Shown here piece by piece: positions 3,462 through 29,900 of a stretch of DNA of 32,000 bases. Under the pieces are notes generated by a model, which did not search any database, had not been told where the DNA came from, and was given only the letters and a program-made list of their open reading frames with translations. The DNA is from Candidatus Peribacteria bacterium (GTDB taxonomy: Bacteria > Patescibacteriota > Gracilibacteria > Absconditabacterales > Absconditicoccaceae). Position numbers and translations under genes: made by a program. The stretch lies in contig CP060225.1 in assembly GCA_023898485.1 (NCBI GenBank), positions 513,704 to 545,703 of the forward strand, written 5' to 3'. Numbering within the stretch: position 1 is the stretch's first letter; each line of letters begins with the position of its first letter.

Positions 3462-3561
3462 CTATAGAGCTACTATATGACCGTAGTCACAACGCTTGCT
3501 ATAACTCTTAGTATCTATATTATCTCTCTGTTTTCTTACCTCTTGCTTGCCTTCCTCCATT

Positions 3562-4305
3562 ATGTATATCTCTCTTCTCAATCGCTACTATGGACAGGAT
3601 AATATCGTATCATACACACCACCTCATGATTTGACCTGTAATGCAGGTGATGTGATGATCGTAGGATGAGAATACGGTATCGTCCTGGGAGAGTCTGTGG
3701 CGCGATGATGTGACTACGTACTGGATGATGCATCTTCCCATCAAGCAGAATCACTTCTTCTATCGCCTACCAGTATGATGATGGTGCATTGGATGGTGCA
3801 TGAGTGGTATAGTAGTTATCGCAAAGTTCTGCCACTCTGGCTAGGTAATGACATCACCAATCTTCTCAAAAGAAAACCTCAGACTCCCCCATCACCATCT
3901 CCTGCCTGATCACATCTCGTCAGATCCTGAACCTCACGGATACGAGATGACAAAAAACATCACGGACAACAGTGTATGATTTTCCCTGATTTACGGACTA
4001 TTTATAGCATGATCGACGAAAGAATAAGAACAGATAATGCTGTCGTTATTCTCTCCAGTGCTATGACTGAGAAACAGCGCAATGACGCTCGATGGGCTAT
4101 CAAATATGGCAAAAAGAGGATCATCCTCAGTACGCCTGCTGCGTTTTTTCATGATCGATATAGACTTACCGACATACAGGTGGTTGATTCACATCTTCGG
4201 TATTACAAAAATAGACAAAACCCAAGATACAATGTGAGTGCAGTCGTCGCACAGCGGAAAGCGCACCTTTCGACAACATCACATTCTATGCAAACTGAGC
4301 AATAA
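3562..4305 (+). CDS. Short, degenerate PriA-like protein (primosomal N'-like N-terminus; helicase motifs eroded)
   Basis: The frame from ATG 3562 joins the track ORF 3976-4305 through several TGA codons. The N-terminus MYISLLNRYYGQDNIVSYTPPHDLTCNAGDVMIVGGEYGIVLGES resembles the PriA 3'-DNA-binding domain. GQQCMIFPDLRTIYSM...VILSSAMTEKQRNDARWAIKYGKKRIILSTPAAFF...IQVVDSHLRYYKNRQNPRYNVSAVV is collinear with the PriA motif I-II region. No GxGKT Walker A is present, DEEH is replaced by DSHL, and the ORF stops (TAA 4303-4305) before any helicase C-domain or Zn-finger. Confidence 0.5.
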
Positions 4306-5206
4306 TCTGATAGACGATCAATAAGAATAAGAAGATAGTCAGGCCGACGATAAAGACGGTCTGCAGGATTTTTCCTGCACGTTTTGCTCATTCGCCATCA
4401 CCACCATCGGTAATATAGTTATAACCAGCTACAAAAATAGATCACAAAATACCTATACCTACCGCATATCCCAAAATTCTACTAACCTTGATAATGAGTG
4501 TGCGTGCCTGATCAAAAAATGTCGTATCCATTGCCAACAGATAGATGAAGTCGATCACTTTCATCAACACAAGAGCTATAACAACATTGATAATACCATT
4601 ACGGGCAGATTTGAGTTGCTCTTCGTGGCCCATAGCATGCATCATCCTATAACCAGCTATAACGAGTGCTATGATAGCTGCAAAAAATGACATTGCTTTG
4701 AAAAACGCCAAAAGTTGGAACCATAGATTATTTTGGAAATTGTTGACTAGCGCATTGCTACCTCATGGTGTCGTGAGATTGAGTGCAAAACCTAGTATCC
4801 AGACTGCACCAAAATACAAGAATGCACCATAGAGAAGTCGGATGAAATGTTTTTGTGCTGTTGCGAGTTTGGATTCATCATCTGCTTGTGTAAGAAATTG
4901 AATACCTATCCATATCAAGAAAATGAAAAAGATAGCTACGCCAATAATTCTTACATAACTCCACAAAAATCACCCATTCCCGCTAACGCTTGGATAAAAC
5001 AGTCTCTTAAGATTTTCTGCCAAAGAAGCATCAGGGTTGATCTGTAAGTCATAGACTTTTTCTGTGGTATTCTCACTATTGTCCTTAGGATTGGTTAAGT
5101 GATTAGCAAAATCTGTTTCAAAACTAGGAACTGTCGGCGGAGCTGCCATGCTTATGCCTACCAGGCTACATGCTGCCACTACTATGATTAGAATACTTTT
5201 CTTCAT
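4286..5206 (-). CDS. Secreted membrane protein made of three tandem VirB2/TrbC-like pilin hairpins (306 aa)
   Basis: Track ORFs 4970-5206, 4763-4966 and 4442-4711 share one frame and are joined only by TGA. A further TGA at 4442-4444 extends the frame to TAG 4286-4288. The signal peptide is MKKSILIIVVAACSLVGISMAAPP. Three TM - short charged loop - TM units follow, with loops TQADDESKLATAQKH, HAMGHEEQLKSARNG and TDGGDGEGAKRAGK. Confidence 0.6.
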
Positions 5207-5221
5207 AATGGATGTAGATAA

Positions 5222-5683
5222 TTACACATTAAAAATAAGTGCTACCAAACTTGTGACAAGTTTGATAATCAGATACACAGCCATCAGTATTACTACGCCT
5301 GTGACTATATTGAGTAGTGGTTTACGAATATCTTCAATCGTTTTGCCAAGCACTAGTTGTAGGCCCTGCCAGATGATGAGGATGACAGCTACCGATAATC
5401 CAATATAAATCATTCGATCAAGATATGGAGCAACTTTTTTTCTGATAGAATCAAAGGTATTCGCGAGACGATATGTAAAGGGATATGATCATTCTGTATT
5501 GGTCACGCTATCTAATGCAGTATCTTGTACTGGATCATATGTATTGGCATCTCTTACTACATTATCAAGAATCTCCATCGGAGATGATCCGAATTGTCAC
5601 CATCAGCCACTATTTTGTGCATAGAGGACAGATCACAATCAGATCATCATAAACATAAAACCACTGATTATATATCTTCTCAT
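5222..5683 (-). CDS. VirB2/TrbC-like (T4SS-type) pilin candidate, 153 aa
   Basis: ATG 5681-5683 to TAA 5222-5224 reads through four TGA codons. An N-terminal signal/TM segment (MRRYIISGFMFMMIGLGSVLYAQ) and a soluble spacer precede the C-terminal hairpin MIYIGLSVAVILIIWQGLQLVLGKTIEDIRKPLLNIVTGVVILMAVYLIIKLV. This architecture matches small pilins annotated in CPR and Gram-positive T4SS loci. Confidence 0.55.
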
Positions 5684-5748
5684 GTATCTATGGGTGGAGA
5701 GTAAAATACCTTACCTAGAGTATATGACAATAAAAAAGATAACACAAA

Positions 5749-6416: not shown

Positions 6417-7319
6417 TTATGCGTAGCCGACATTTGCGCTAATGGTCGCGTAATAGTCTTGTGTCTCTTGTGGACGAGTATTGAGTGGTTCTTTAGCATA
6501 TCATGGGCCATTATTGTATGCTATCAATGCTTGCTGCATATTGAACGTATCGCCACTTTTATATCCATATTCTGCCAAATACATAGCAGCAGCTTCTGCT
6601 GCATACACAGGATTTTTTGCAAGTGACTCTGAGTCAGGTGCCGCGACCTTTTTGTATCGATCTTTTGCTGTATCAGGCATAAATTGAAACAATCACTGTG
6701 CGCCCGCACTGCTTCCCAATGGTCTGTCTCCTTCTTTTAAGACTCATTTGCTCTCCTTTTTACACACCTCTACCAAAGTATTGATTGGCAATTTGTGTTT
6801 CCGTTCTAATCGATGTAAGTAAGAGATGTATGCGGTGTTCTTGAGGTATCCATCCTTGGGTAATTGTGACCAAGAGGTATGCTTCAAATCAATAATACTC
6901 TCTTTATCATATTGGGGCTCTTTCAGCTGTATTTTATCGGTTTCATATTTTAGTCATTTGATATCCTCTGCAGTTTTAGTTATATCATCTGATTCGACTG
7001 ATTGAGGATCTTGTAAAAATGATTTGATTATTACTGATTTTAGGACTCTCATGACAGGATTGGTTGGTTCCTCTCTCAGCCACTCAGCAATCGTACCGAC
7101 TGCGACATCTCATACCAGTGGAGATTGTATCATTTTATCATATATCTCTCTTCATCTATCATTCAGTCAGCTAGTGTCACCTTTTTCTAATGCAGATGCA
7201 AGCTGTTCATACTTACTATCTGTTTTTGTTTCCTTGGCTTCTATATTTTGTTTCTGATCATCATCCTGATCGGGCCCCTTGTTGAGGTTATTGTCTGCGA
7301 TATCACTTTTATCTACCAT
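6417..7319 (-). CDS. SLT-domain lytic transglycosylase with a long acidic N-terminal region (VirB1-like role possible)
   Basis: I translated codon by codon from ATG 7317-7319 to TAA 6417-6419 (301 codons) and found no TAA/TAG. The catalytic region is KKESKGVLKEGDRPLGSSAGAQGLFQFMPDTAKDRY...AYNNGPGY, matching ES...AGAxGLMQxMPxTA...YNxG. The Gly of GLFQFMP is TGA 6693-6695. Confidence 0.8.
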
Positions 7320-8095: not shown

Positions 8096-8113
8096 TTTTA
8101 TGCAAGATTATTT
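8096..8113. repeat. 18-bp direct repeat TTTTATGCAAGATTATTT, copy 1 (overlaps the 3' end of the toxin gene)
   Basis: Exact match to 8629-8646. Together the two copies bracket the RelE/RHH cassette. Confidence 0.8.
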
Positions 8114-8350
8114 GCCTCGTTTTTTGTAGATATCACCTCTAGATCATCATCAGACTATCTCGATCGATCACCCTTTCTCCATGAAAATAATCCTCTTATT
8201 ACCAATTCTTACTCTTTGGTATGGTGTTCCTTTGAGGGGTTTGATATCGAGTCATGTATGATCTCATGATATGAGCTGCATCAATACTTTTTTGATACGT
8301 TGTCTTTCTCATGTGGAAAGTGTATGGATCCATTTGATATAATCTTTCAT
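8108..8350 (-). CDS. RelE/ParE-superfamily type II toxin, 80 aa
   Basis: ATG 8348-8350 directly abuts the antitoxin stop. Translation is MKDYIKWIHTLSTGERQRIKKVLMQLISGDHTGLDIKPLKGTPYQRVRIGNKRIIFMEKGGSIEIVGGGSRGDIYKKRGK. The LKGxxYxRxRIGxxRIIF...RGDIY pattern is typical of RelE/ParE toxins. It has seven in-frame TGA codons, including a TGA-TGA-TGA run, so it is invisible in standard code. Confidence 0.7.
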
Positions 8351-8578
8351 CTAATCATCTAGAGCAGAGATAAACTCCTCCGCCGATATAGATTCAGAAA
8401 AAAATTCGTCACTCCATGATCCATTAATCTGCAACTGTATACGATCAGGATCAGCAATAGATCGTAACTGCATAGTTACCAGACTAGAGACACTGATACC
8501 AAGCTCTTCCGCCAGTGCCTGCAATCTCTGTTTTAGTTTGGTATCGATACGCATCGAAAAAGTGGTTTGTGTAGCCAT
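8351..8578 (-). CDS. Ribbon-helix-helix (CopG/RelB-like) antitoxin, 75 aa
   Basis: MATQTTFSMRIDTKLKQRLQALAEELGISVSSLVTMQLRS has the beta-strand/helix/helix RHH pattern. It sits immediately upstream of, and is co-oriented with, the toxin. Its stop is TAG. Confidence 0.65.
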   Translation of the reverse strand: MATQTTFSMRIDTKLKQRLQALAEELGISVSSLVTMQLRSIADPDRIQLQINGSWSDEFFSESISAEEFISALDD

Positions 8579-8628
8579 TGTATCTCTTATGTATGATAAA
8601 TGTATTACACAGTATAGTTATTTGCATG

Positions 8629-8646
8629 TTTTATGCAAGATTATTT
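8629..8646. repeat. 18-bp direct repeat TTTTATGCAAGATTATTT, copy 2 (at the presumed left end of the IS30-family element)
   Basis: Exact match to 8096-8113. It shares a TGCAAGA core, in inverted orientation, with 9708-9722 on the other side of the transposase gene. Confidence 0.8.
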
Positions 8647-8737
8647 TCACTGAATTCTATTTCAAAATAGCACACTAGCATAAATCTCTTAATAGGAGTA
8701 TAATCTATAGGATTTATACTCTATGTACTAGGTTATT

Positions 8738-9700
8738 ATGAAACACTTAAGCTATGAGGAATGTGTACATATCGAAGTATTGGTAGGTGAAGGTTATTCT
8801 CATAGACGTATTGGAACAGTCCTATGAAGAAGTAATGGAAGTATTTCTCGTGAAATAAGAGAATATAGTATGAATGGAATCTATATTGCATCACTTGCAT
8901 ACCTCAAAAGAACCATAAAGAGACAGTTATGCAATAGTCTTATGCGCTGTAGAATAGACGAGTGAAGTGATCTAGCACAGTATACAATAGACAAGATGAA
9001 GCTCTATTGGTCACCAGAACAAATAGCAGGAAGGTGGAAGAAAGAGACATGAGAAACTATTTCAAAGGACACTATCTATAGGTACATTAAGATACATCAT
9101 CCAAAGTTAGTACCTCAATATTTCAGAAGAAAATGAAGAAAATATAAGTATAACAAAGAACCCTGTGATTATATCTATAACCGTATTAGTATTCATGAGA
9201 GGCCAGACATAGTGAAGAATAAAGAAAGAATAGGCGATCGAGAATGAGATACAGTTATAGGAAAATGAAGAACATGAGGTTTTGTGACTCTCAATGAAAG
9301 GAAGAGTGGTTATGTGCTAGCTGGGGTCATTAAGAAAAAGAAAGCGCAAGAGGTGTTATATGTGATGGAAAAGTTATTCAATGAGGTATCTGAAGGTATA
9401 AGAAAAACCCTCACCTTAGACAACGGCAGAGAGTTTTCTGAGCATTATATGTTGAAGCCATTGTGCGGGTTAGACACATACTTTGCAGACCCATGATCAC
9501 CCTGACAAAGATGAGCAAATGAGAATACAAATGGCTTACTGAGACAATTCTATCCAAAACGTATGAGTCTTGCAAATATTCAGCAAGAACACCTTGAATA
9601 CTATGTAAGTCTCCTTAATAATAGACCAAGAAAAAGGTTAGGTTACACTACTCCGATAGAGGTTCTTGCTGAATATAATAAGTGTGTGGATTTGAATTAG
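8738..9700 (+). CDS. IS30-family DDE transposase, 320 aa
   Basis: ATG 8738 to TAG 9698-9700 (321 codons) is in frame with track ORF 9284-9496. It has an N-terminal HTH (SYEECVHIEVLVGEGYSHRRIG), then GDREGDTVIG, TLTLDNGREFSEH and [28 protein letters not shown]...LNNRPRKRLGYTTPIEV. These match the IS30 catalytic core (WEGD...DNGxEF...PWQRGxNENxNGLLRQ...RPRKxLG). Ten TGA codons are read through. Confidence 0.85.
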
Positions 9701-10276: not shown

Positions 10277-13200
10277 TTATCCTATAATCTCTGCTTTGCC
10301 AGCATCGATGAGGTCTTTGACTTTTTTGTATTTGACTTCGTACTCTACTTTGCCATCAGGATAGCGGACGGTGATTTTGTCATTGGGGCGGAGTTTAGAT
10401 CACTTGGTTTGTAGTTCGTGGTCAGTGGTCAGTGGTTCGCTGCCCGTCTCAATCACTTCTACTCCGTCTTCGTCAGATTGGATTTGCTTCGTTGTTTTGG
10501 GTGTAGTTGTTGGTGCTGAAGGAGACGAAGCTGCTGCCGCTTTGATAGAGTCGATAATACCTGACTGTCTGGCTTGGATTCTTGCCTGACGAGCATTGAT
10601 TTGGTCATTCACATTATCCCAGTCGATCTGTGCTGTGCGAGTCACGATATCGCGGTCGATATTGGCCTGGAGCTGAAGGAAGAGTTCGTATGCCTCCCTT
10701 TTGTACTGGACGAGTGGATCGATCTGTGCATAGGACATGAGACCGACCTTGTCGCGAACATGCTGCATTACATCGATATGATCTATCCAATAGTGGTCGA
10801 TAATGTTCAAATTATTGGTCGTGATCATCTTGTTGACAATGACAGCAGGAATATCGTGCTGGACATCGAGTCTCTGCTCCAAATGATCGGTCAAAACATG
10901 CATGAGTTCGTTGGATGAACCAGGGACGCTGTCGAGGGTCAGGTTAAATTCTTTCTGAAGGGTAACAAGAAGATCTTCATCAGACACATCCAACTGTTCT
11001 TGCTCGGTCACAAAGCCAGCAATGACGTCTGGTATGAGTGTACGGATATCCTGGATGACAGGAGAGTCTGCCAAATTGATAGTTGCCTTATCATCGGTTT
11101 GTTTTTCTGCTTCAGAAAGTGCAACAAGGAGTTTATTTCTTCTATCATACATTCTTTGGCGCTGTTTGTCGACGACGGTATCATAGTCGAAGAGGTGCTT
11201 ACGAGAAGAGAAATGTCGTGCCTCCATCTGCTTCTGTGCGCGGATGATAGAGCCACCAAATTGTTTATTCGTCAGTTCCATCTGCTCGAGCTGATCTCTA
11301 GACATGAGTGTGGCTGCGAGGGATTGGATTTTTTCTCCGCCGACTTTGCGCATGATCTCATCATCGAGTGCGACGAAAAACATCGATACACCCGCATCTC
11401 CTTGACGACCGGCACGACCACGGAGCTGGTTATCGATACGACGAGAGTCATGTTTTTCGGTAGCGAGGATCATCAGACCATAATGAATATTTTGCTCGAC
11501 AAGATCACCTGTCGCTCATGCTGGTTTGATAGTGAGTTCAAGATAGGTGTCTGATGGTTTGGATTTCTTCGTATTGAAGGTGAAGGTCCACTCTGCTCCC
11601 TCATGGGTCAGTGTGTGATTGCGCTCTGCATCACGTACCTCATCGAGTGATAACCCGAACTGTGCAACCAACGCGTCAAAGGTCAGTTCCGCTTCTTCGC
11701 GAGAGAAGATATCGAGTGACACAGGGTGAGCATTTTGGAGCTGAGTGCTGATTCGCTTAGCATAATTAGTAGCGATCTGTATATTAAGATCGTCGGGGAG
11801 TTTGATATCCGTACCACGACCGGCCATATTGGTCGCGACGACGACCGATCCCAACTTACCTGCACCTGCGACGATATTCGCTTCTTGTTCGTGAAATTTG
11901 GCATTGAGGACAGAGTGTTTGATCGCTACTTGAGTCAGTAGTGATGAGACGAACTCCGAGGTGTGAATCGATGAGGTACCAACCAAAATCGGCTGACCCA
12001 TACGATGTGCAAACTGGATAGTGTCCATGACGGCTTTCCATTTGGCGTTTTGGGAGAAGTATACTTTGTCTTCGTAGTCGACACGGATGACTGGCTTGTT
12101 GGTCCTGATCGCAAGGACACCCAACTCATAGATAGACTCAAATTCTTCACCTTCGGTCGTTGCGGTACCCGTCATACCAGCAAGTTTGTCGTATTGTTTG
12201 AAAAAGTTTTGGTAGGTAATGGTTGCGATGGTTTTGGATTCACGCTGGATAGCTACTCACTCTTTGGCTTCGATCGCTTGGTGGAGTCACTGGTTGAATC
12301 TACGACCTGGCATTGCACGTCCGGTATTGGTATCGATGATGACTACTTCGCCATTAGATACGATATATTCTTTGTCTGCGCGATAGACTGCTTGGGCTTT
12401 GATAGCGTTTTCGATGTGGTGTATCTCATCGAAGCCGAGATCTCTGTAGAGATTTTCTACTCACAAAATACTCTCAAGTTTGGCGATACCCTCGGAGGTA
12501 AGGGTAGCATTTTTGGTCTTTTCGTCGATGTAGTAGTCTCCATGTGGTTCGGATTCTGATTCATCTTTTTTCTCATCATTGAGTAGATCATGGAGAAATC
12601 ATTTTGAAACTTTTTTGCGTCCAGGAGCTGCAGTGAGGTTGCGGATGATCTTGGCGTAGTAAGTGTATTTGTCCGTAGACTCCTCTGCTGGCTGCGAGAT
12701 AATCAGCGGTGTACGTGCTTCGTCGATCAGGATAGAGTCTATTTCGTCCACAATGGCAAAATATAATGGTCTCCAGAGCAGCACTCTCTGTTCCATCGTC
12801 TTGGCGATATTGTCGCGGAGATAGTCAAATCCAAGCTCTGAGTTTTCGACGTAGGTGATGTCACATTCATACTCTTGGCGGCGAGCTTTGCCTTGAGGAG
12901 TGCTCTTGGTCACGGAGCCAATCGTCATCCCGAGAAATTGATAGAGATGTCCGATCCATGCAGCATCACGAGATGCGAGATAATCGTTCACCGTGACGAG
13001 ATGGACACCCTTACCGGTGAGAGCATTCAGATAGAGTGGTAATGCTGCTACTAGTGTTTTACCTTCACCGGTTTTCATCTCAGCGATTGCATCACGATGG
13101 AGTACGATACCTCCCAGTAACTGGACATCATACGGGATCATGTTCCAGGTCTGGAGTGTGCCTTTGACATCGTATTCGTTGCCGACCATGAGTGCACATG

Positions 13201-13423
13201 CACGTTTGACGAGTGCAAATGCTTCGGGCAAGATGTCGTCAAGATGTTCGCCTGACGCGACTCTGGATTTGAGTTCCGCGGTTTTGGTCTGGACTGCTTC
13301 TTGATCATAGTCAGCGTAGTCATGCTCGTAGATCTCATTGATCTGGCGGATAATGGGGTCGATTTTTTTGAGTTCTCTTTCGTTGTAATTTCCTGATATT
13401 TTATCAGCTAATCGGTTGATCAT
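10277..13423 (-). CDS. secA: Preprotein translocase ATPase SecA (1,048 aa)
   Basis: Track ORFs 12599-13423, 11516-12175 and 10400-11473 are in one frame. The 12176-12598 gap translates as ...[17 protein letters not shown]...[60 protein letters not shown] without TAA/TAG. GLHQ and KEGV use TGA 12287-12289 and 12257-12259. The true stop is TAA 10277-10279. The C-terminal tail lacks the Zn-binding CxCxSGxKxKxCH motif. Confidence 0.95.
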
Positions 13424-13540: not shown

Positions 13541-13834
13541 ATGGCTCTATTATCTCCTTGGTATAGTCCTTATCTGCCTACTATGTAGAAGATTATGAGA
13601 TACCTCCTAATAATTAGTACATTATATCACATATAGAACATCATGCATTGTGTGATACAAGGTGCAGTGTGTTTTCCCTGCATTAGGATTTTCATGTGAT
13701 ACGCACAAAACTATAACTAGATATACTTTCCTATATTTGTGTATCGCAATTATATGATATAATGGTAAAAAATAGAATATCTCACCATGCATCATTATAC
13801 TCGTGGATAGTTTTATGTGTTTTGCACACTATAC

Positions 13835-16600
13835 ATGTACAATCCTAACGATATTACACTCAATCCTAACAGTACTACTACACCACCACATCAGCCACAG
13901 CCACAAAATGAGCATGATACAACAGCCGTACCAACGGTTCACGCACCAGTGTCTGATGAAAGTTTTGATGTAGATAGAGCCTTGGCGGCTATCGAGGAAT
14001 CTACGCCCAGTCCTGATCCATTGATCAAAGTCAACCCAAGAAATGCAGACGCTGTGATCGAAAATCACCAAGAGGACGTGCGCAATGGTCTTGTAAGTGA
14101 CGATACTCCCGTTCCACCGATGGTGCAACCATCAGTACCTCATGCTCCAGTCGCTCAACCACTTCCCACACAACAAATACCTTCCACTCTTCCCACTACT
14201 CCGACTATACCTACCACATCCAATACTCCTGACTCTCCTGCCAAACAAGCCGTCCATCAAGCATTTGGTGTTGCAGGCGCAGTCACTGCCGCTACCGCAG
14301 CTACATCATCCGCTACTCCGACTGTACCAACTATCCCTGTTGTCCCAGCTACTCCTACTACAACCACTCCACGTGTTATCAATACCAAAAAAAGCGGAAA
14401 ACGTATTAGTTTTATTGGTTTTACTATAGGCTGTGGAATTTTTCTTCTTCTCCTCTTAGGTGGAGGTGCTCTTGTTCTCTGGAGCATGTTCCAAGATCCC
14501 AATCAAGCATGGACTATCATAGATCGTGCATCAGGGGAACTGCTTATTAAACTCTTCACTGGTACTATATTTGGTATCTTGACGATCTTTGGAGTCTTCT
14601 TCCTTTTTGTTAATCTCTTCAGACTCGCATCCAAAAAAAACACCAGAAAAATTTCTTATATTGGTGGTATGTTGGTAGGTTTTCTCATGTTAGGTGCGTG
14701 ACTAGGTGCTGGCATCCCTGCTATCAGCTATCTCAACACACTCAGCACTAATAATGTGAGTACAGGCCTTATGGTCGAAGCATACGTACTCTTAGGAAAC
14801 AATGAATCACCACGTCATATCAATGATGATACTCCTCCACTCAGAATTGCTCCTGCCAAAATCCTCTTTGAACTCAATACTACCGTATATAAAGCCACCG
14901 TAGGACAACTTGGACTGCAGACTACACCACGTATGACATTGGATTGTGGAAATGGTGAGACATTCTCCTATAGCAATGAAAGTAATACATTCTGACCATG
15001 TTTCTATACAGAAAAGGGTGACTACCCCGTCACTATCACATTCAACTATACTGATAGATCTACCGGACAGATGACGGAACAAGTCTTCGATATGGGATCA
15101 TTTCCTATAGATGGACAAATTGCTCTTGCTAATATCAACGGTACTTCTCAGACAAAGCTCTTACTCAACAATGATAAGACCGAACTCATTGCAGGTATTG
15201 CACCTGCTAAAATCAGATTCGATGCACAAGATCTTATCAGTGATCTCCAATTACCTACCAACGATATCACATGGGACATAGATGGTGATGGTATATTTGA
15301 GCGCGCAGAGGATGTAGTATTCTCAGAAAGTTTTATCCTCTCCAAACTTCATACCATCAACTATAAAATCGGAACATCACCATATACCTATACCTTCGAT
15401 CTCAGAGTACAACAGTCTGATGTCCCTATCTGTATGATCGATGTCGAGGACACCACCAGCAAATCATATGACTTCGTCATTTCATTCGTCGAAACCAACG
15501 CCGATATTAGTCAGTACGGTTTTGAAATCATCAATACGACAACAAATCAAATCATCGACAGACGCCAAAGCACGATCGGATCACTTTCCTACGATTTCAC
15601 TCGCGAATGATCGTATGCTGTCAAAGCGTATTTTATCACCGATGATGGTAGTAGGGGTGATTGTGAGAGTGATGATTTTCGTGTCGGAGCGGTACCATAT
15701 GTCGTCGATTATACGACTACTGTACAGTGACCAGGTGAATCTAGTGCATCCACGTTGGCACAGAGCGACGTACTTACTATCAACGATGACGAGACGTGGA
15801 CTATCATGAGCATACCAACCAAACTAGCTATCACCATAGCAGATATCAGACCAAGAAGTGGCACAGTCACTCCCATAGTAGAACTCGATGGTGAACCCAT
15901 CCTCTCTACTAATAATGAAAATTTTTCACTCACGATTAGTGCAGTAGGAGATCACACACTCACTATCGGTGTACGTGACACACTTACCAATGAAACCAGC
16001 ATCATAGAAAGTCATACTATCCACGTAGAACTCCCTAGTATAGAAGGACAGCTGCAGGTAAGTCCTAACAGTGTTGGTGACGAACCGTTTACCGTCACGC
16101 TCGACGCATCGACCGTCACACTCAATGATCCTGATGATGAGGTAGTCTACTTCTCATGGGATTTTGGCGATGGAGAAGTCAAGAAAAATCAAAGCCAAGG
16201 AAGAATCCAACACACCTATTACTTTAATGAAGAAACACAAGAAGGAATCTACCACCCTACTTGTACCATCACCACTCGCAAAGGTGAAACCATGACACTC
16301 TCACTCGCAGATCCTATTACCATAAAAAGAGCACTCAGACACGCTGAGATCATCTTTGACTCGCATCCTGCACAGCTTGCCAATATCGGTGAGAATGTCG
16401 ATATGTCCCTCATAGTAGACGGCATACCAAGCACAGTAATCTGGGATTTTGGCGATGGACAGAACTTCCAATGTACAGGCAGAACCTGTAATGAAGTTAC
16501 TCACAACTTCCTAGATACAGGCACCTATGCAGTCTCTGTGACGATCTCCTATGGTGACCACCCCGACGTCACTGCCAAAAAGAATATTGTCATTCAGTAA
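13835..16600 (+). CDS. Large membrane-anchored surface protein with PKD/Ig-like repeats (about 921 aa)
   Basis: Track ORFs 13817-14701, 14756-14995, 15071-15610 and 15755-16600 share one frame. I read the gaps and they contain only TGA. A Pro/Thr-rich N-terminal region is followed by three TM segments (for example ISFIGFTIGCGIFLLLLLGGGALVLW). Repeated beta-rich modules then carry PKD hallmarks WDIDGDG, WDFGDGEVK and WDFGDGQNF. The stop is TAA 16598-16600. The start is taken at ATG 13835, with an alternative GTG at 13817. Confidence 0.8.
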
Positions 16601-16774: not shown

Positions 16775-18676
16775 ATGAACTATCTCACCATCCGCGATCT
16801 ACATAAATCATTTGCTCATAAACCACTCTTCGAATGACTGGAGATGACCATCGCAGCAGGACAAAAAGTAGCTCTCGTAGGTGCCAACGGATCGGGAAAA
16901 ACCACTCTCATCCGCACGATCATGGGAGAGTCCGACTATAGTCAAGGATCAATCGAACGATCAGACCGCATTCACGTCGGACGACTTCGTCAAGAAGCGA
17001 CGTTTAATCCTGACCAACTCGTGATTGATATCCTCTTCGCAGACGATACTCCCAGAGCCCAAGCGATCAAACAGTATGAAAAAATCATCTCTCATCCCGA
17101 CTTCGATCCACAAGCATTTGCAGATATCCAACATCAGATCGACACGCTCGATGCGTGGACCTACGAGTCTAGAGTCAGATCCATCATTTCTCAACTCCAG
17201 CTGACACCGTTCTTAGAGCAAACGTTTGGCTCACTCTCGGGTGGTGAAGCCAAGAGAATCGCACTAGCCAAGGTACTGATAGAAGATCCTCAGATGCTCA
17301 TCCTGGACGAACCGACCAACCACCTGGATGTGACGATGATAGAATGGCTGGAAGACTATATCGCTCGCTATGATCTGACGATCCTGATGGTGACGCATGA
17401 TAGATACTTCCTCGACCGTGTGTGTACAGATATCTACGAGCTCTATGATGGACAGATCACGACCTATCCTGGGAGTTATCAGCACTATCTCTACGCCAAA
17501 TCGCAGCGTGACACGGCAGCAGACGACCTCCTCCATGAGACCAAAATGCTCTATCGTAAGGAATTGCAATGGATGCGCACCTCTCCTCGTGCTCGCCAGA
17601 CCAAAAGTGTCGATAGACAGAAAAAATTCTATGATCTCGAAAAAGACTACAAAACACAAAGAAAAACCTCCAAACTCAGACGCCAATGACTAGAACTCTC
17701 CACAACCACGTCCAGACTCGGGGGCAAAGTCATCAAAACAGAACGTATCAGCAAATCATACGGCGACAAGTGTCTGATTCGTGATTTTTCGTATCAGTTC
17801 CAGCAGGGTGAACGCATCGGTATCATCGGTCCCAATGGCGTGGGCAAATCGACGTTTATCCGTCTGTTGCTGGGTGCTGTCGAGCCAGACTCGGGCCATA
17901 TCATTACCGGCAAGACGGTCGTCTTCGGTCACTATCTCCAAGAGCAGCAAGAGTTCAACCCCGACAAGAAAGTCATCGATATCGTCAAAGATGTCGCTCC
18001 GTATATACGCCAAGCTGATGGATCCAAAGTCTCTGCGACCAAACTGCTCGAACAGTTTATGTTTACACCCAAGCAGCAACACAGCTTCGCCAAACATCTC
18101 TCAGGAGGCGAAAAACGTCGCCTGACCCTCCTGCTCGTCCTGCTACAGAATCCCAACTTTCTCATCCTCGACGAGCCGACCAATGACCTCGATATCGACA
18201 GTGTGCAAGTGCTCGAACAGTTCCTCCTTGCATACACGGGCTGTCTGATCGTCATCTCCCATGACAGATTCTTCATGGACAAAATCGTCGATCACCTCTT
18301 CGTATTCGAGGGAGAAGGAAAAATCGCAGACTACTGGGGAAGCTATAGCACCTACAAAATGGATAAGGAAAAAATCGATACAGTAGATAAAATTGAAGAA
18401 ATGGAAGAGGAATCCAATTCATCCATTTGATCAAATTCGTCCACTTCATCCTCCAAACCCAATAAATTAGGTTACATGGACCAAAGAGAATTCGATGCCA
18501 TCGTCCCTGCACTCGAACAGCTCGAAGCAGAAAAAGATGCCATCAATCTCCAGTTCCAAGACCCCTCTATCGATCACGAAACACTCAAAAAACTCAGCCG
18601 TCGCATGGCTGAGCTCGTCACAGAGATAGAAGAGAAAGAGATGAGGTGGATGGAGTTGGTGGAGAAGGTGAGTTAA
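16775..18676 (+). CDS. ABC-F family ATPase (two ABC domains plus C-terminal coiled coil, Uup-like), 633 aa
   Basis: ATG 16775 is in frame with track ORFs 16844-17689, 17840-18430 and 18476-18676. There are two Walker A sites (GANGSGKTT, GPNGVGKST), two signatures (LSGGEAKR, LSGGEKRR) and Walker B motifs (LILDEPTNHLD, LILDEPTNDLD). Read-through TGAs give LFEGLEMTI and an inter-domain linker. The stop is TAA 18674-18676. Confidence 0.9.
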
Positions 18677-23832: not shown

Positions 23833-24246
23833 CTATATGCAATGTGATATAATAGAAGGCATCTCAACAACCCACACACAGTAATTGATCTGGCTATTTT
23901 TTGTTAGCTCATGGAAGATGATATCATCTAGTCATCTCACTCCATAGACATACTCTTTGGAGAAGGTCTGTCCACCATTACTGTCGTAGGTTTGATGCTC
24001 TTGAGCAATATTCTGTCCATCATAGACATAGGTGATGAGTCTGGATTCATTACTTCATTGGTAGACTCTCTTACTCGTTCTACATCATAGTGGATCGTAG
24101 CTATATTCGATCTTGTAGGGGTCTTGGTTTCCTTCGTGGTTATTTTTGAGATTCGCTTCGATGAGTCTATTCTGGTAGTCGTAGGTAAATGTTCGCTTGT
24201 CGTTTTCGATGAGGCTGTTGCTCGTTTCACACAATAGAGAGTCATA
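23833..24246 (-). pseudogene. Truncated rhs core remnant (no start codon; homologous to part of the main rhs)
   Basis: The frame opens right after the TAA of the upstream gene. It reads ...NDKRTFTYDYQNRLIEANLKNNHEGNQDPYKIEYSYDPLGCRTSKRVYQGSNESRLITYVYDGQNIAQEHQTYDSNGGQTFSKEYVYGVRGLDDIIFHELTK, then diverges and stops at TAG 23833-23835. Nucleotides 23905-24213 align closely with 27329-27658 of the main gene. Confidence 0.7.
23905..24213. repeat. Rhs-core repeat B, downstream copy (pairs with 27329-27658)
   Basis: Long stretches are identical by eye, for example CTCTTACTCGTTCTAC.TCATAGTGGATC.TAGCTATATTCGATCTTGTAGGGGTCTTG. There is one indel: the main copy carries extra sequence encoding DNPAEDGAGHP. 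Confidence 0.75.
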
Positions 24247-24633
24247 TTAATAGAGCTCTACCTTATACCAATTAGATCACATATCTTTAATAATAAACTT
24301 GTATTCTTCGCTATTAATGTCGTTAATACTATACATATATCATGCTCATTGTAATTTATTGTACCATCATGATTTGAGAAATACAATATCCCCATTATTC
24401 ATTCTTATGATATTGTGTATATTATTTTTTTTCATAAAAGAAATACAATCAGCACATATATCACTCTTTTTATCAATTCATGTAATTGATGGATTTCAAT
24501 TCATATATACAACCATTGCTTCATAATCTCATATACTGTTTTTGAATCCATCAATAAGTTTTATATACTTAAAGAAAACAATAGATATAATACATAAGAC
24601 TGCAGCTATAATGATGATTTTTTTTATTCTCAT
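24247..24633 (-). CDS. Small N-terminally membrane-anchored protein, 128 aa; candidate immunity protein for the orphan toxin
   Basis: ATG 24631-24633 to TAA 24247-24249 contains seven TGA codons. Translation is MRIKKIIIIAAVLCIISIVFFKYIKLIDGFKNSIGDYEAMVVYMNGNPSITGIDKKSDICADCISF.... It lies 33 nt downstream of the type-44-like toxin ORF, on the same strand. Confidence 0.5.
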
Positions 24634-24666
24634 TATCACATAAACTTACAATCTAAAAATACGCAA

Positions 24667-25582
24667 TTACTGTAAATGATCGCGTAGCTTCTCTTCCGTT
24701 ACAATAAGTCCATATTTTTGATACATGGCATATCACAATTCTACTGTATTTCGATCACTAACTTCATCATTAAATTTATCAGAATATCTGTTACTACACT
24801 CATCCATAGTTAACACCGCACATCTTAATGTCATTTTTGCTGTGAACACATTAGCACTTCAATTAATTAACTCATTCATTGGCATACCTCCAGCTGCCCC
24901 GACATACCCGTAAAGCAGATTACCAAACCAATCATACGAATACTCATTATCTGCTATTAATACAGAAAATGCTTGTAGTGTTGCTGGAGAATATTCATAT
25001 CTCTTATAGTCTCGATCTCATCGTGGGCGAACTTTATTAAAGAAGTATAGATATTTATCAATAGATAGTTTATCTAATTTTATTTGAAGAGTAGAAATTT
25101 TGAATCTTTATTAATTCATTCTCAAAAAAAGATCAATCTCATCGATTTAATTCATTTTGTAAATTTACAATACTTCTTTTTATTGCAGATTCTTGAAGGG
25201 CATAATTCTGCATTAGAGCTCAATTATTTAACAGCTTATTGAGTGCATCTATTGTCATATCTGGAAGTACTTCTTTACTACTCAACCCCCATGGATCCAC
25301 ATAATTCACACTATTGTTCCTCACATAGCTATACGGATTCGGCCCATCGATATACAGCAGTGGATCACTGGAGATGAATCTTCCGAGTCTCGGAGAGTAA
25401 TATCTCGCTCTATAATAGTACAGATCAAGTTCTGCTTCGTATTCTCTAGCGATGTAGAGTCTGTAGTTTTCTAGTCATGGTTTGGATTCTTGCATGGATG
25501 TGTTTCCATTCTGCTGATTACCACTTGGATTACTAGTATTTGTGTTACTAGCGCATTGTTGAAATTTTGATATATAGTACAT
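24667..25582 (-). pseudogene. Orphan rhs C-terminal module: core tail, DPWGL, linker, then a type-44-like toxin domain in the +1 frame
   Basis: Frame 1 runs from ATG 25580-25582 to TAA 25070-25072. It reads MYYISKFQQCASNTNTSNPSGNQQNGNTSMQESKPGLENYRLYIAREYEAELDLYYYRARYYSPRLGRFISSDPLLYIDGPNPYSYVRNNSVNYVDPWGLSSKEV.... The +1 frame is open from 25107 to TAA 24667-24669. It reads ...VRPRGDRDYKRYEY...YDWFGNLLYGYVGAAGGMPMNELINGSANV...NDEVSDRNTVELGYAMYQKYG and has no start of its own. Confidence 0.65.
25286..25533. repeat. Rhs-core repeat A, orphan copy (pairs with 26921-27168)
   Basis: About 250 bp encoding NPSGNQQNGNTSMQESKPGLENYRLY.AREYEAELDLYYYRARYYSPRLGRFISSDPLLYIDGPNPYSYVRNNSVNY. The nucleotide sequences differ at only scattered positions by eye. 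Confidence 0.85.
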
Positions 25583-25589
25583 ACACTAT

Positions 25590-26261
25590 CTATGCACTAA
25601 AACAATCTTTCATATCAATTATACCTATATAAGATATATTATTAACGATATAGAATATAAAAACCGTATCCTGTATGTAGTATATTGTAGAGACATGATC
25701 TCTAATGAATCATGCATATTCCATATCCTCAGGAGAAGCTAAGGTGCTATCGTCATTAATATTGTTATGTTTATAAAAATCTATCTTTCATTGGTTGATA
25801 TCGATTATATCCTGTACAAACTGATAGTTATTGTCATAGTCATAAGATGCAATTACATCTGGTTTATAATCATCACTGTCTCCCAACCAACATATATCTT
25901 GCCATTGCAAATCATTATTAGTTTCTAATTGGTCCACAATATCTAGATTAAAATCAAATCATGATCAGTAGTATACTGCACCAAAAAACCCGTTATAATA
26001 ATATGTCTCATATGCATCCTCAAATCATGGGAAAAATGCGATATATCAATCAGCTCCAGGATTGTAAAAGATCCCTAAGCTATCCTTCACAAAATGATCC
26101 ATCATAGCAAAATCATTACTATTAAGTGCAGATAGTAGTCAAATAATATCATCATGCTGACTATCTATGTCTATATCTCTTCAACTATTGTCTAGAATAC
26201 TGCATCAAGATAATAACATACAACACAACACCCCAAAGTATCTTAGAAATATTACTTTCAT
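25590..26261 (-). CDS. Lipoprotein, 223 aa; candidate immunity protein for the amidase-tipped Rhs toxin
   Basis: ATG 26259-26261 lies 24 nt downstream of the rhs stop, and the ORF ends at TAG 25590-25592. MKVIFLRYFGVLCCMLLSGCSILDNSG has a lipobox LSGC whose Gly is TGA 26205-26207. The mature part is acidic and aromatic-rich (FFPGFEDAYETYYYNGFFGAVYYGSGFDFNLD) and matches no family I recognise. The ORF is invisible in the standard code. Confidence 0.6.
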
Positions 26262-26284
26262 ATCTAGATCGTTAATTATAAAAA

Positions 26285-26920
26285 CTACTTTTGATTCTCT
26301 CTTACGTATTGTATTACATCATCTGCAAACGATGTTGCTTCTCAAATATTTTTACAACTTACCCATGGGTGTGCGTATATATCATCAGCACTTAAACCAT
26401 ATGTATTTGCAACCGATAATGTTAATTCTTTTAAAGACTGTAGTTGATCACTAGTTAGTGGCTCACCAGTCATTCATACATTCTCTATTCAGATGGTGTT
26501 TTGGTTATTATTAGCATACTGATTTACTTCATCTGTTTGATGCCAGTCATCTACTCATCAGTTATAAACATATTCCCTCAAGGTATTTACACAGTATTCA
26601 TTTGCTCCATTGTGTCGAGCTATCTGTGTATCAGGATCAAGTGTCCCATATATTTGACCATCAGTATCTATAATATAGTGAGCACTTGCAGTACCTTTGG
26701 GTCGCGTATAATCTAATGTAGATTCTAAGGTTGTTGCATTGGTTTGGTGTAGAATAATAGCTTGTATTCATTCTCATTGACGATCTCGATGTCAATAATT
26801 ATATTTTTCAGCATATGACCAATCAATATCAATTCATCACAAATTATCAATTCGTTCATTAATACTATTTGTAAATGTGTTACTCTTAATGTTATCATAT
26901 AGTATAGCACTACTCTCTAA
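26285..26920 (-). other. Rhs C-terminal toxin tip: Amidase_2 (N-acetylmuramoyl-L-alanine amidase / PGRP)-like domain
   Basis: After DAWGL the protein reads ...GIQAIILHQTNATTLESTLDYTRPKGTASAHYIIDTDGQIYGTLDPDTQIARHNGANEY...NTIGIENVGMTGEPLTSDQLQSLKELTLSVANTYGLSADDIYAHPWVSCKNIGE. This follows the Amidase_2 order: IxIHxT (His ligand), AHYxIDxDGxIxQ, AxHxG, NxIGIE, TxxQxxxLxxL, then IxxH....C (His/Cys ligands). Confidence 0.6.
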
Positions 26921-29900
26921 CCCCCAAGCATCCATATAATTCACACTATTATTCCTCACGTAGCTATATGGATTCGGTCCATCTATATATAGTAGTGGAT
27001 CACTGGAGATGAATCTTCCCAGTCTCGGAGAGTAGTATCTCGCCCTATAATAGTAAAGATCAAGTTCTGCTTCATATTCTCTAGCGGTGTAGAGTCTGTA
27101 GTTTTCTAGTCATGGTTTGGATTCTTGCATGGATGTGTTTCCATTCTGCTGATTACCACTTGGATTACCATTCGTATTTCATGAGTTTTTACTTCATCAG
27201 AATATTATATTACCTCGGGTATCGTATCTGTAGGATTCGACTATCTTACCTTCTTGGTTAGAGAGAGCTATGATAGATCACTGATGATTTTGATAATAGT
27301 AGTACTGATTCACCTGATCATTTCTGGTGAGTTCATGGAAGACGATATCGTCTAGTCCTCTGGCTCAGTAGACATACTCTTTGGTGAAGGTTTGTCCATC
27401 ATTGCTCTCATAGGTTCGATGTTCTTGAGCAATGTTCTGTCCATCATAGACATAGGTGATGAGTCTACTTTCATTGCTTCATTGGTAGACTCTCTTACTC
27501 GTTCTACGTCATAGTGGATCATAGCTATATTCGATCTTGTAGGGGTCTTGATTTCATGGATGGCCTGCCCCGTCTTCAGCGGGGTTATCTTTCAGATTCG
27601 CTTTGATGAGTCTATTCTGATAGTCATAGGTAAATGTTCGCTTGTCGTTTTCGATAAGGTTGCCATTCTGATCGTATGCAAAACTAGTGGCTATTGCTCC
27701 TGTTGCACCTTCTGTCCCTATTGCTACTTCTTCATATTGGTTTCTGTTATTGATGTTGTAAGTGTTCTGATACTCATCTGTCACTGCACCGACACCATTA
27801 TAGTCTGGACTGATGGTGAGCCAGTCATCTTGGACTCCACTACTACTTCATCCACTTTGTCAATTTGATCCATTTCATCCTGTATCATCTCCCGTTCCTC
27901 GTCCATAGTGATTTCCATTCCCTCCATTACCTTGGTTTTGTTGGTTTCCATTGCCATTATTGTTTCCATTTGATCCACTTGGTCCATTTCAGCTATTTCA
28001 TCCACTTTGTCCATTATTCCCATTATCTGTATTGGGTACGACTGATTGCGTCGTATTTCACTGGGTATTGCTATTAGCTTTCTGATGGAGTCGATCGAGG
28101 ATAGTGATACCTGCGATGTCATTGTATTCGGTGACTCTGTTGCCTAGTCCGTCGTAGGTATAGGTCTGTACTCGATGGTTGAGGTCGGTAGATCATTGTT
28201 CGCCATTGGATCAATTGATGAGATCACCAATATTGTAGGCAGTGGTCGTGATCTGATAGATATCATCATAGTAGTACTGATCGTGACCATCAGTGAGGAT
28301 GTTATTCATCAGATCATAGGTGTAGGTGTAGCCTATCTCGGTGGTAGGTCAGCCAGTGAAGCTATCGTGACTGAGGGAGGTAGGTCTTAGGAGATCGTCA
28401 TAGATTCGTGAAGTGGTAGTATCATTGGCTCTGGTGAGAGAGGTGAGGGTGGCGCTGTCATAGAGGTAGTCGATGATACTCTCTCCTTCTCGCTGGATAT
28501 CTGTCATGCGTCCGAGGATGTCCCACTGGTTCGTAATCGTCTTGCCTGATGGGTAGATGGTGTCTTGGAGATCAGCGGTATCAGCGTAGTAGCTATGGGA
28601 GATGGTCTGAGTAGGGAGTCACTGCTCGGTGAGTCGTAAGTTAGACTGTGATTCAGAGGTGAGCCTATCCAGACTATCATACGAGAAAGTAAGATCATGT
28701 CCGAGGTCATCGGTGATCGATGTGACCCTCCCGAGTTCGTCATAGGTGTAGTGCTCCTGAGTGACTCATCCGACTCATGGACCCAGATCAATATCCTTCT
28801 GTGTGATGCGATGCATGTCATCATAAGTATATGCTACGGTCGACCCATTGGGATCGGTAGATGAGATGATATTGCTGTCTGCATCGTAGGTGTAGGTAGT
28901 GATTGCACCATCGGGGAGTGCTTGCTGTATGAGTCTATCATAGTCGTCGTAAGTCCATGTGGTGATGTTGCCATTATCATCGGTGAGAGAGATGAGATTA
29001 CTGTGGCGATCATAGGTTTTGGTAGTGACGATAGCTTGTGATCCATCATGTTGCGTTACTTGTGTGACATTGCCCCAGTAGTCATATTCGTACTCGGTAG
29101 TATTACCCTCTGCGTCCGTCATCTGGGTGATCTGACCCAGTCCATTGTAGACGTAGGAGAATGTCTGTCCCATGTGATTGGTCGTCTGGATGAGACGATG
29201 ATCGTCATCATAGGTATTGGCTATTCGGAGCATCTTACCTTCTGCTGTGGTGATGGTTTGTTTGGTGATGAGGTTGTCATCATCATATTCATAGGTCAGT
29301 ATTTTGCCGACTGCGTCGGTGATGGTCTCTGGTCTGGCAAATGCATCATAGGTCATCGTAGTCACCGCTCCTCTCTGATCGGTCATGGCGATGATCTTCC
29401 CATGTTGATCATAGGTATAGGACATGGAGAGAGTTTCGCTGGTGTTATCTACATTGACTTTGTCTACCTGTGTCAGCTGTCATCGTGCATCATAGGTGTA
29501 GTTTCGTTGCTGTAATAGTATGTAGTTAGTGGTTTGTGGTGTGTAGTTGCTTACTATCATCCTTGTTATCATGTTGCGATTATCATCGTACTCGAAGAAG
29601 GTGGTGATATCCTCAGCAGTGGTGATAGTGGCGATCATATCATCGAGTGTTCGAGTCATGGTGGTCTCATGTCCTTCTGGATCAGTGATGGAGATCAGTC
29701 TTCCTTTGGTGTCATAGTCATAGCTGTACTTGATCAACTGTCCATCTACTGTTGCAGATTTACTGGTGAGTCTCTGGAGAGAGTCATAGGTATAGTTTCG
29801 CGCGAGTCATTCAGGAAGGATGATGGATGAGAGGTTGTCATTGGGATCATACTCCATGATAGTGGTAGCTATAGTGTCTGCATCTTGGTCAGTAGAGATG

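Follow-up and report, generated by a model that had tools for sequence, protein, structure and literature searches.

A conserved protein of three tandem VirB2-like pilin hairpins in the SR1 lineage of Patescibacteria

In type IV secretion systems (T4SSs), pilins are treated as small subunits with a single transmembrane (TM) hairpin that are drawn from the membrane one by one, and VirB2 pilins keep the same orientation whether in the membrane pool or the pilus lattice, with both termini outside and the loop inside. Among Patescibacteria, VirB2-like pilins (PF04956/PF18895) are found in 1,948 assemblies, with 441 arrays of 2–11 separate genes, and homologues of the coupling protein are found in 2,918 of 3,035 genomes, mostly distant from virB4 (PMC12102498). 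According to the same survey of 3,035 genomes, T4SS genes are scattered in Gracilibacteria and VirB6 homologues are "scarce or absent" (PMC12102498). The pilin array of Southlakia epibionticum, a six-pilin cluster in the T4SS locus, is essential (PMC10633639, PMC12857230), and a pilus is still described as a possibility for Patescibacteria in a December 2025 review, no such filament having been reported for any Patescibacterium (PMC12857230). Fused VirB2-type pilins are mentioned neither in these three papers (term search of PMC12102498, PMC10633639 and PMC12857230) nor in the results of a full-text literature search. Here we describe a gene in a 32,000-nucleotide stretch of a Candidatus Peribacteria bacterium genome (contig CP060225.1, positions 513,704 to 545,703; hereafter the window) whose product consists of three homologous VirB2-like (PF18895) α-helical hairpins in tandem behind a Sec signal.

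The gene lies on the minus strand at 4286–5206 of the window and reads through 306 sense codons in one frame, from an ATG at 5204–5206 to a TAG at 4286–4288. In this genome TGA is a sense codon for glycine (code 25). The triple-hairpin gene contains four of them, at Gly79, Gly148, Gly255 and Gly273 (4970–4972, 4763–4765, 4442–4444 and 4388–4390), and in the columns shared with database homologues these have G, or W where they were translated with code 4. Likewise, TGA sits at glycines of the motifs GAQGLFQF and AYNNGPGY in the SLT lytic transglycosylase gene at 6417–7319, and recoding with table 25 regains long open reading frames (ORFs) throughout the window, for example a 1048-aa SecA. The named homologues of the triple protein belong to candidate division SR1/Absconditabacteria, and the window is therefore assigned to a bacterium of the SR1 lineage that uses code 25. 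Read with table 11, the gene falls into five pieces, of 78, 67 and 89 aa and two shorter ones. A preliminary description of this DNA had joined three ORFs across TGA into one 306-codon frame; the single frame stands, but with four TGAs and five pieces, and the three ORFs are presumably the table-11 pieces longer than 60 aa. We also considered, and rejected, programmed termination or read-through at TGA between hairpin units. TGA makes up 41% of the glycine codons in the gene family and 53% at the glycine column of the boundary between units 1 and 2, and because it is thus not enriched at unit boundaries, termination there is not supported. A separate column, the glycine that ends loop 2 (codon 204, window 4595–4597), has TGA in 49 of 59 species (83%) as against 41% family-wide, an excess that may be due to chance or mutational bias.

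The proposed order of signal peptide, soluble segment and three TM–loop–TM units is borne out by hydropathy, by the loop sequences and by an AlphaFold2 model of the homologue P0001 (65% identical, of equal length, run with the family alignment), and the protein accordingly has the signal peptide and the TM–charged loop–TM build of PF18895 pilins. It had also been called secreted, which does not hold, as the protein is membrane-inserted and not simply secreted. Hydropathy peaks are centred on residues 10–17, 87–100, 130–133, 170–183, 209–219, 245–253 and 286–298, the first of them within the signal peptide. This peptide covers codons 1–21 (5144–5206, minus strand) and reads MKKSILIIVVAACSLVGISMA, followed by AP after a cleavage site that was set by eye; it forms a helix at 2–23 in the P0001 model, and across the family both the lysine-rich n-region and the A-x-A-like c-region are conserved. 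An acidic soluble segment of about 57 aa follows (codons 22–78, 4973–5143, minus strand), carrying the family-conserved motifs APSF..F(A)..L and N65-x4-F70-Y-P72, of which N65, F70 and P72 are invariant in the family. The segment has no match in a Pfam scan and is mainly coil with low pLDDT (per-residue confidence) in the model.

The three hairpins follow on the same strand. Unit 1 (codons 79–147, 4766–4972) consists of TM1, the loop TQADDESKLATAQKH and TM2; unit 2 (codons 148–228, 4523–4765) of TM3, the loop HAMGHEEQLKSARNG and TM4, with K170, K216 and D219 inside the membrane and invariant in the family; and unit 3 (codons 229–306, 4289–4522) of TM5, the loop TDGGDGEGAKRAGK and TM6, with F292, F294-L-L296 and Q300 invariant. 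The loops are charged and 14–15 residues long, and the linkers between hairpins measure about 12–20 residues in the family consensus. In the P0001 model (mean pLDDT 72) there are six long helices, at 80–106 and 111–142 in unit 1, 150–193 and 195–226 in unit 2, and 228–267 and 272–305 in the region of unit 3, with breaks of merely 1–7 residues. Neither a Foldseek search of the Protein Data Bank (PDB) with the model (no match below E = 3) nor an hmmsearch of PDB sequences with the family profile returned a match, and both searches are uninformative because the hairpins are simple and helical and their bundle is uncertain (predicted template-modelling score, pTM, 0.46).

Membership in the pilin family is clearest at the level of profiles. 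The whole protein scores 41.2 bits against PF18895 (T4SS_pilin), in three stretches, and 61 of 62 family members match this profile (best E 8e-18) and practically no other. Searching each hairpin separately, as had been suggested, gave a divided result, with units 1 and 2 above the curated gathering cut-off of 26.6 bits (27.7 and 29.1 bits) and unit 3 below it (12.9 bits). Unit 3 is nonetheless recovered by profile–profile alignment, with hhalign probabilities of 88–92% to units 1 and 2. Taken together, the three unit sub-alignments give probabilities of 82–92% and scores of 32–37, in register from TM1 through the loop to TM2, compared with 11 ± 2.5 (maximum 20) for column-shuffled controls and 9–19 for reversed profiles, so that the unit scores lie about 8 standard deviations above the shuffled ones. 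The internal repeat is therefore real, and we conclude that one pilin-type hairpin was duplicated long ago to give the three units, which have since diverged strongly. The related profile PF04956 (TrbC/VirB2) is not matched, the best value being 13.3 bits for unit 1 against a cut-off of 27.9.

These results bear on the possibility that the pilin matches reflect the generic composition of TM hairpins, and that the protein is a holin- or transporter-like six-TM membrane protein with no relation to type IV secretion. Such a reading could draw on single-sequence Smith–Waterman alignments between units, which are not significant (z 0.3–1.3), on the empty PDB searches, and on unit 2, which when isolated gives a sub-threshold match to PF05106 (Phage_holin_3_1; 19.2 bits, cut-off 23.8) that neither the whole protein nor the 62 family members share. 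We consider it very improbable, given that two units pass PF18895 separately, that the repeat stands so far above its shuffled controls, and that the same family profile retrieves strong PF18895 proteins: of ten retrieved relatives examined, eight score 160–236 bits on PF18895 and five also pass TrbC/VirB2. The preliminary description had left a polyprotein, a pilus base or adaptor, and an unrelated six-TM protein side by side; the last of these is now unlikely, and the choice is narrowed to that extent.

The fusion is conserved. A deep protein search yielded 65 homologues of 253–361 aa, 59 of them 291–319 aa, and all 65 have three hairpins. A scan of one genome per species found 61 loci of the SR1 lineage, among them those of Vampirococcus lugosii and of the complete genome RAAC1_SR1_1, and under code 25 nearly all of them hold a single ORF of about 290–350 aa, two being cut by contig ends. 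An exhaustive profile search returned 986 relatives, many of which are short, begin at fragment residue 1 and resemble TGA-cut table-11 pieces. Among the 65 homologues and 61 species loci the single ORF is kept, with no orthologue divided into separate genes by TAA or TAG stops. The core of the preliminary description, three VirB2/TrbC-type pilin hairpins fused behind one signal peptide, is thus upheld by profile, repeat and orthologue evidence alike, since pilin matches and an internal repeat were also found.

The triple gene has one constant companion. Fifteen nucleotides upstream lies a gene of 153 codons with 5 TGAs (5222–5683, minus strand) that encodes a signal peptide, a soluble segment of about 70 aa and one TM–loop–TM hairpin; a single hairpin had been proposed for this adjoining pilin candidate. 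Its own Pfam match is a weak one to TrbC (PF04956, 16.6 bits, below the cut-off), and PF18895 is the top or near-top match, in register and at 12–28 bits, for nine of ten orthologues tested. With a hidden Markov model of the hairpin, a single-hairpin gene followed by a triple one ("1x 3x") is seen in 53 of 61 SR1 loci. Of the 57 loci with upstream sequence, 55 have the partner directly upstream and in the same orientation, or 56 if we count locus L135, where a 380-nt insertion separates the two genes. In Vampirococcus lugosii (L127, 8800–10762) the triple gene is kept, at 291 aa, but upstream, in place of the partner, there are a DnaG-like gene and a spacer rich in AT; the partner may be elsewhere in the genome or lost. 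When the ORFs lying up to 10 kb away in the 61 SR1 loci were all clustered without bias, the partner emerged as the sole universally linked gene; the next families, in at most 27 loci, are housekeeping or subclade-specific. The triple gene and its upstream single-hairpin paralogue are therefore a conserved two-gene module. That the other SR1 neighbours are housekeeping genes is compatible with a membrane protein unrelated to secretion. The SLT gene had been cited in support of a surface-filament context, and although the gene is real (PF01464, 53 bits), none of the 61 SR1 loci carries an SLT gene near the module, so it gives no such support. SLT, YigZ, GrpE, the PKD protein and SecA were all rejected as conserved neighbours (0–1 of 61 loci).

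Several smaller features surround the module. Directly upstream of the 1x–3x pair, 26–27 of the 61 SR1 species have a 147-aa TM protein (weak tetraspanin match) and a 321-aa protein with a von Willebrand A (VWA) domain, for example at L002 7945–9369 and L004 331–1764; both genes are absent from the window, and the VWA protein could be an adhesin working with the module or reflect mere subclade synteny. The same two hexamers, TTGTCA-16 nt-TATTTT, stand ahead of each gene of the module, 1x as well as 3x (window 5703–5730 and 5232–5259, minus strand), and promoter-like counts around the module are at chance level. The last codons of the 1x gene contain a 12-bp AT-rich stem-loop with a T-run (5242–5268, minus strand), which could reduce 3x expression relative to that of 1x. 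A convergent 252-aa ORF under code 25 (3547–4305, plus strand) overlaps the 3' end of the triple gene by 20 nt; it has no Pfam match, and a homologue lies near the module in one of 61 SR1 loci. Scanning the window with Rfam and for tRNAs gave no matches.

A link to type IV secretion is seen in the sister lineage BD1-5. P0195 (306 aa, three PF18895 stretches), a distant match from a Gracilibacteria metagenome-assembled genome, is encoded at a locus with the order VirD4/TraG-type ATPase (PF02534), 328-aa triple-hairpin gene, P0195 and 136-aa single-hairpin gene. The complete genome CP042461 has the same series, ATPase, 3x, 3x and 1x, with gaps of 16–34 nt and housekeeping genes on both sides; in Pfam its ATPase, a 935-aa coupling protein with an N-terminal TM region, scores 51 bits (PF02534) and its pilin genes score 65, 81 and 37 bits. 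Tight operons of this kind were observed at L008, L014 and others in L009–L082. We sampled 74 ATPase loci, 61 of them with at least 1.2 kb of downstream sequence and 58 with room for the full array. Of the 61, 39 have a multi-hairpin gene immediately after that for the ATPase (median gap 26 nt), and the full 3x-3x-1x array follows in 27 of the 58; the Peregrinibacteria ATPase loci have no multi-hairpin genes. In the L014 locus, which spans 18 kb and has 14 ORFs, no VirB4 was recognised on inspection, the Pfam scan being of the four operon proteins only, and the pairing of pilins with a coupling protein instead of VirB4 is, to our knowledge, an unusual arrangement.

The BD1-5 proteins are also collinear with those of SR1. 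In both BD1-5 triples, units 2 and 3 match SR1 units 2 and 3 best (49–70 on the diagonal versus 41–45 off it), SR1 unit 3 matching its BD1-5 counterpart at 66–70, and the BD1-5 single-hairpin protein matches the SR1 single. Because of this collinearity, we conclude that the fused architecture predates the split between SR1 and BD1-5; in the code-25 lineages examined, the triple fusion is both fixed and ancient. The modules comprise four hairpins in SR1 and seven in BD1-5. That BD1-5 orthologues share an operon with a T4SS coupling ATPase is a further argument against a six-TM protein unrelated to type IV secretion.

Longer fusions are found elsewhere in the candidate phyla radiation (CPR). Behind one signal peptide, PF18895 domains number four in P0190, five in P0184, six in P0141, P0161 and P0187, seven in P0168, eight in P0171 and nine in P0203, the last of which also has seven TrbC stretches (137 bits). 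Four of them (P0168, P0171, P0184 and P0203) exceed the cut-offs of PF18895 and PF04956 alike, which links the two families. The cluster of P0161 and P0215 includes a protein from Andersenbacteria, and the poly-hairpin proteins are annotated as hypothetical or unnamed. P0168 is encoded by an uninterrupted table-11 ORF within an array of seven single pilin genes (L006, 9005–14262). At its junctions a C-terminus like that of a single pilin is followed by an amphipathic mature N-terminus, with no internal signal peptide, and its units look like concatenated mature pilins. At another locus (L007, 9925–16481), an eight-hairpin fusion is followed by a 155-aa PF18895 gene, a pilin–PKD fusion and a 718-aa multi-PKD protein. 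These proteins share with the triple protein the covalent tandem of pilin hairpins behind one signal peptide; they differ in that their repeats are often nearly identical, which points to recent amplification, whereas the SR1/BD1-5 triple has three old, diverged, position-specific units. The triple protein belongs to a broader class of concatenated CPR T4SS pilins that is apparently undescribed.

Fusions of this kind raise the question of processing. If a protease cut the 306-aa precursor between hairpins after insertion, three different mature pilins would be released in equal amounts, and several observations would suit such a polyprotein: VirB2-type pilins (TrbC, VirB2, TraA) are normally matured by proteolysis, the linkers, about 12–20 residues long, would lie outside the cell, the seven-hairpin protein of L006 has at every junction a similar motif, SF[DG][IFL]P, that is a possible protease site, and the near-identical repeats of P0141 and P0161 resemble concatemers of subunits. 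For the SR1 protein we nevertheless judge this rather unlikely. Its two junctions have no motif in common with each other or with the C-terminus, the AlphaFold2 helices are nearly continuous through the junctions, with a break of one residue between 195–226 and 228–267, and the module is without a linked protease gene, the 1x partner being the one neighbour that recurs in all loci. Moreover, separate genes, which are common elsewhere (PMC12102498), give the same products, yet the fusion has long been retained, which suggests that the covalent link matters.

Our preferred reading, on which we find ourselves evenly divided between acceptance and doubt, is that the protein is an unprocessed "pseudo-trimeric" VirB2-like pilin that works with its single-hairpin partner. 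After removal of the signal peptide, the six TM helices would insert with both termini outside and the charged loops in the cytoplasm, so that all hairpins would be parallel and in the orientation of VirB2 pilins. The product would not be cut into subunits but would remain a pseudo-trimer in which three diverged pilin protomers are covalently joined. Together with the 1x partner, it would build the pilin part of a Patescibacteria-type T4SS, either as a short filament or as a conduit that spans the envelope, where the cell touches its prey or host. Fusion would fix the order and the 1:1:1 stoichiometry of paralogues for which other CPR bacteria use arrays of 2–11 separate pilin genes, and the N-terminal segment of about 57 aa would be displayed outside the cell.

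Described pilins resemble the triple protein in some respects and differ from it in others. The protein shares with VirB2, TrbC, TraA and the PF18895 pilins a signal peptide and TM–charged loop–TM hairpins of about 70 aa, with a match to PF18895 and a probable termini-out, loop-in topology. Where those pilins have one hairpin in about 100–150 aa, the usual architecture of PF18895, this protein has three in 306 aa; unlike VirB2, TrbC and TraA, it also has the extra soluble segment, leaves PF04956 unmatched and, in SR1, is not encoded beside virB4 or other T4SS genes. Patescibacteria pilin arrays such as that of Southlakia resemble the module in that several divergent paralogous hairpins are encoded together, with a presumed role in an epibiotic T4SS, but in SR1 the paralogues are fused in a fixed order and the module lies apart from other T4SS genes. 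Cyclic pilins (RP4 TrbC, Agrobacterium VirB2, R27 TrhA) offer a parallel for covalent linkage. The N and C termini of VirB2-type pilins adjoin on the pilus surface, and in TrhA cyclisation joins them (PMC13031515). A peptide bond at that end of the hairpin, on the outer face of the pilus, is compatible with assembly, and a head-to-tail linkage of neighbouring protomers would thus be geometrically plausible. The difference is that a cyclic pilin has its own two ends joined post-translationally, whereas the triple gene encodes head-to-tail links between different subunits.

Alternatively, the six-helix protein could stay in the membrane as the core of a translocon, VirB6-like or as a pilus base, with only 1x-type paralogues polymerising, if any do. 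We regard this as somewhat unlikely. In its favour, the protein is polytopic, its six TM helices after the signal peptide giving it a functional resemblance to VirB6/TrbL and to p028 of plasmid pLS20, which have at least five, and K170, K216 and D219 are invariant within its membrane-embedded part. VirB6 is scarce or absent in Gracilibacteria, as noted above, and the position-specific divergence of the units is what a fixed asymmetric assembly would show. In BD1-5 the triples directly follow a VirD4-type coupling protein, a class that docks on inner-membrane components, and in pLS20 a VirD4-like gene likewise precedes a polytopic TM protein. That plasmid region (NC_015148 16910–22208, equal to L224 1911–7209) has the VirD4-like gene and then a gene for the 974-aa p028, with a polytopic N-terminus and a long, repetitive, low-complexity C-terminus. 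The resemblance does not extend to homology. No VirB6/TrbL model in Pfam or NCBIfam matches the triple protein at E ≤ 10, hhalign of the triple family with the N-terminal region of p028 gives a probability of 0.3%, all units are homologous to a pilin family and not to a channel family, and the triple protein is composed wholly of pilin-type hairpins. Elsewhere in CPR, in addition, poly-hairpin fusions occur within ordinary pilin arrays. We also rejected p028 as a precedent for fused pilins: it has no pilin Pfam match, the 1x partner scores 23.8 bits over one hairpin against NF045890 (pLS20_p028; cut-off 150), and tblastn of a BD1-5 pilin against plasmids gave no match.

Several points weigh against an unprocessed pseudo-trimeric pilin. 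That the protein is left unprocessed we deduce only from helix breaks that are short and from junctions that have no motif in common, and we know of no precedent for a six-TM protein being pulled from the membrane for polymerisation. The invariant K170, K216 and D219 inside TM3 and TM4 suit a resident membrane protein as well as they do a pilin, and with the pTM of the P0001 model the mutual packing of the three hairpins is uncertain. Genomic context in SR1 is a further such point, as none of the 61 loci has a homologue of the T4SS coupling ATPase up to 10 kb from the module. A single-sequence scan with the coupling ATPase reached only Gracilibacteria and Peregrinibacteria, with no assembly in common with the 61 SR1 loci when compared by eye; the alignment scan for coupling ATPase and VirB4 covered the best 80 of 326 relatives, and a deep protein search with the same aim covered 120 of 7,996 matches. 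In agreement with the preliminary description, a Pfam scan of 21 window ORFs outside the module, to which two small ORFs (2019–2378 and 25070–25582) did not belong, returned no VirB4, VirD4 or VirB6; SecA (10277–13423) and an ABC-F ATPase (16775–18676) were identified by sequence inspection only. Finally, electron-microscopic sections of Vampirococcus show no communication bridges (PMC8080830).

The remainder of the window includes a polymorphic-toxin locus (23833–31942, minus strand), plausibly the prey-wall-degrading weaponry of a predatory SR1 bacterium. Its 1885-aa RHS/YD-repeat protein (26285–31942) ends in 330 aa with an N-acetylmuramoyl-L-alanine amidase domain (PF01510, 57 bits), and two orphan RHS C-terminal cassettes follow the gene (25070–25582 and 23833–24234). 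Small ORFs with signal-peptide- or lipoprotein-like starts (25590–26345 and 24247–24639) could be immunity genes. The plus strand at 13817–16600 encodes a 927-aa protein whose N-terminus is rich in Pro and Thr and which has TM helices and, at its C-terminal end, PKD domains (62 bits). PKD proteins are also found next to pilin genes in L007, and in L002 a PKD-like gene is situated some 10 kb away from the module. GC content is 0.49–0.51 at 1–2015, compared with mostly 0.32–0.45, and rises again to 0.46–0.49 at 11–13, 17–18 and 28–30 kb. The genes at 1–2015 are a PepF-like fragment (1–881) and an inosine-uridine nucleoside hydrolase (999–2015, 246 bits), and this rise may be a sign of horizontal acquisition or of salvage genes with high expression. 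An IS30-like transposase (8738–9700, HTH_38) adjoins a RelB-like antitoxin (8351–8578) with an 80-aa partner ORF (8108–8350), and the region 8108–9700 marks a mobile-element insertion between grpE and the Nudix and secA genes.

Our study has implications for how pilin genes are counted in these bacteria, because gene callers that use the standard code break the triple gene into fragments, and per-genome counts of "VirB2 homologues" will err on fusions. It also makes some questions accessible. Experiments are feasible, because Ca. Absconditicoccus praedator, which has been cultured together with its prey, and Vampirococcus lugosii both carry an orthologue; and since fusion fixes subunit order and stoichiometry, one structure or mass measurement would show the arrangement. 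The triple protein therefore gives a handle on two questions about the essential pilin arrays of Patescibacteria: do they give rise to a pilus on a monoderm cell, and, if they do, is it a heteropolymer?

In summary, related parasitic bacteria depend on small pilins for life on their hosts, and the triple-hairpin protein is a variant of these that is conserved yet has not been described. A conserved, encoded trimer, with 4- to 9-mers elsewhere in CPR, challenges the picture of single-hairpin pilins drawn from the membrane one at a time. It is conceivable, though we think it unlikely, that concatenated VirB2-like pilins are a distinct and unrecognised class of T4SS building block, in which the whole code-25 clade (SR1, Vampirococcus, BD1-5) has three hairpins and other CPR lineages have up to nine. 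They would remain unprocessed and would either polymerise as pre-assembled pseudo-oligomers or themselves form the membrane conduit, and in the code-25 clade they would operate with a VirD4-type ATPase instead of in a classical VirB4-centred locus. If so, they would constitute a minimal pilin-plus-ATPase translocon by which epibiotic or predatory ultrasmall bacteria bridge to their prey.

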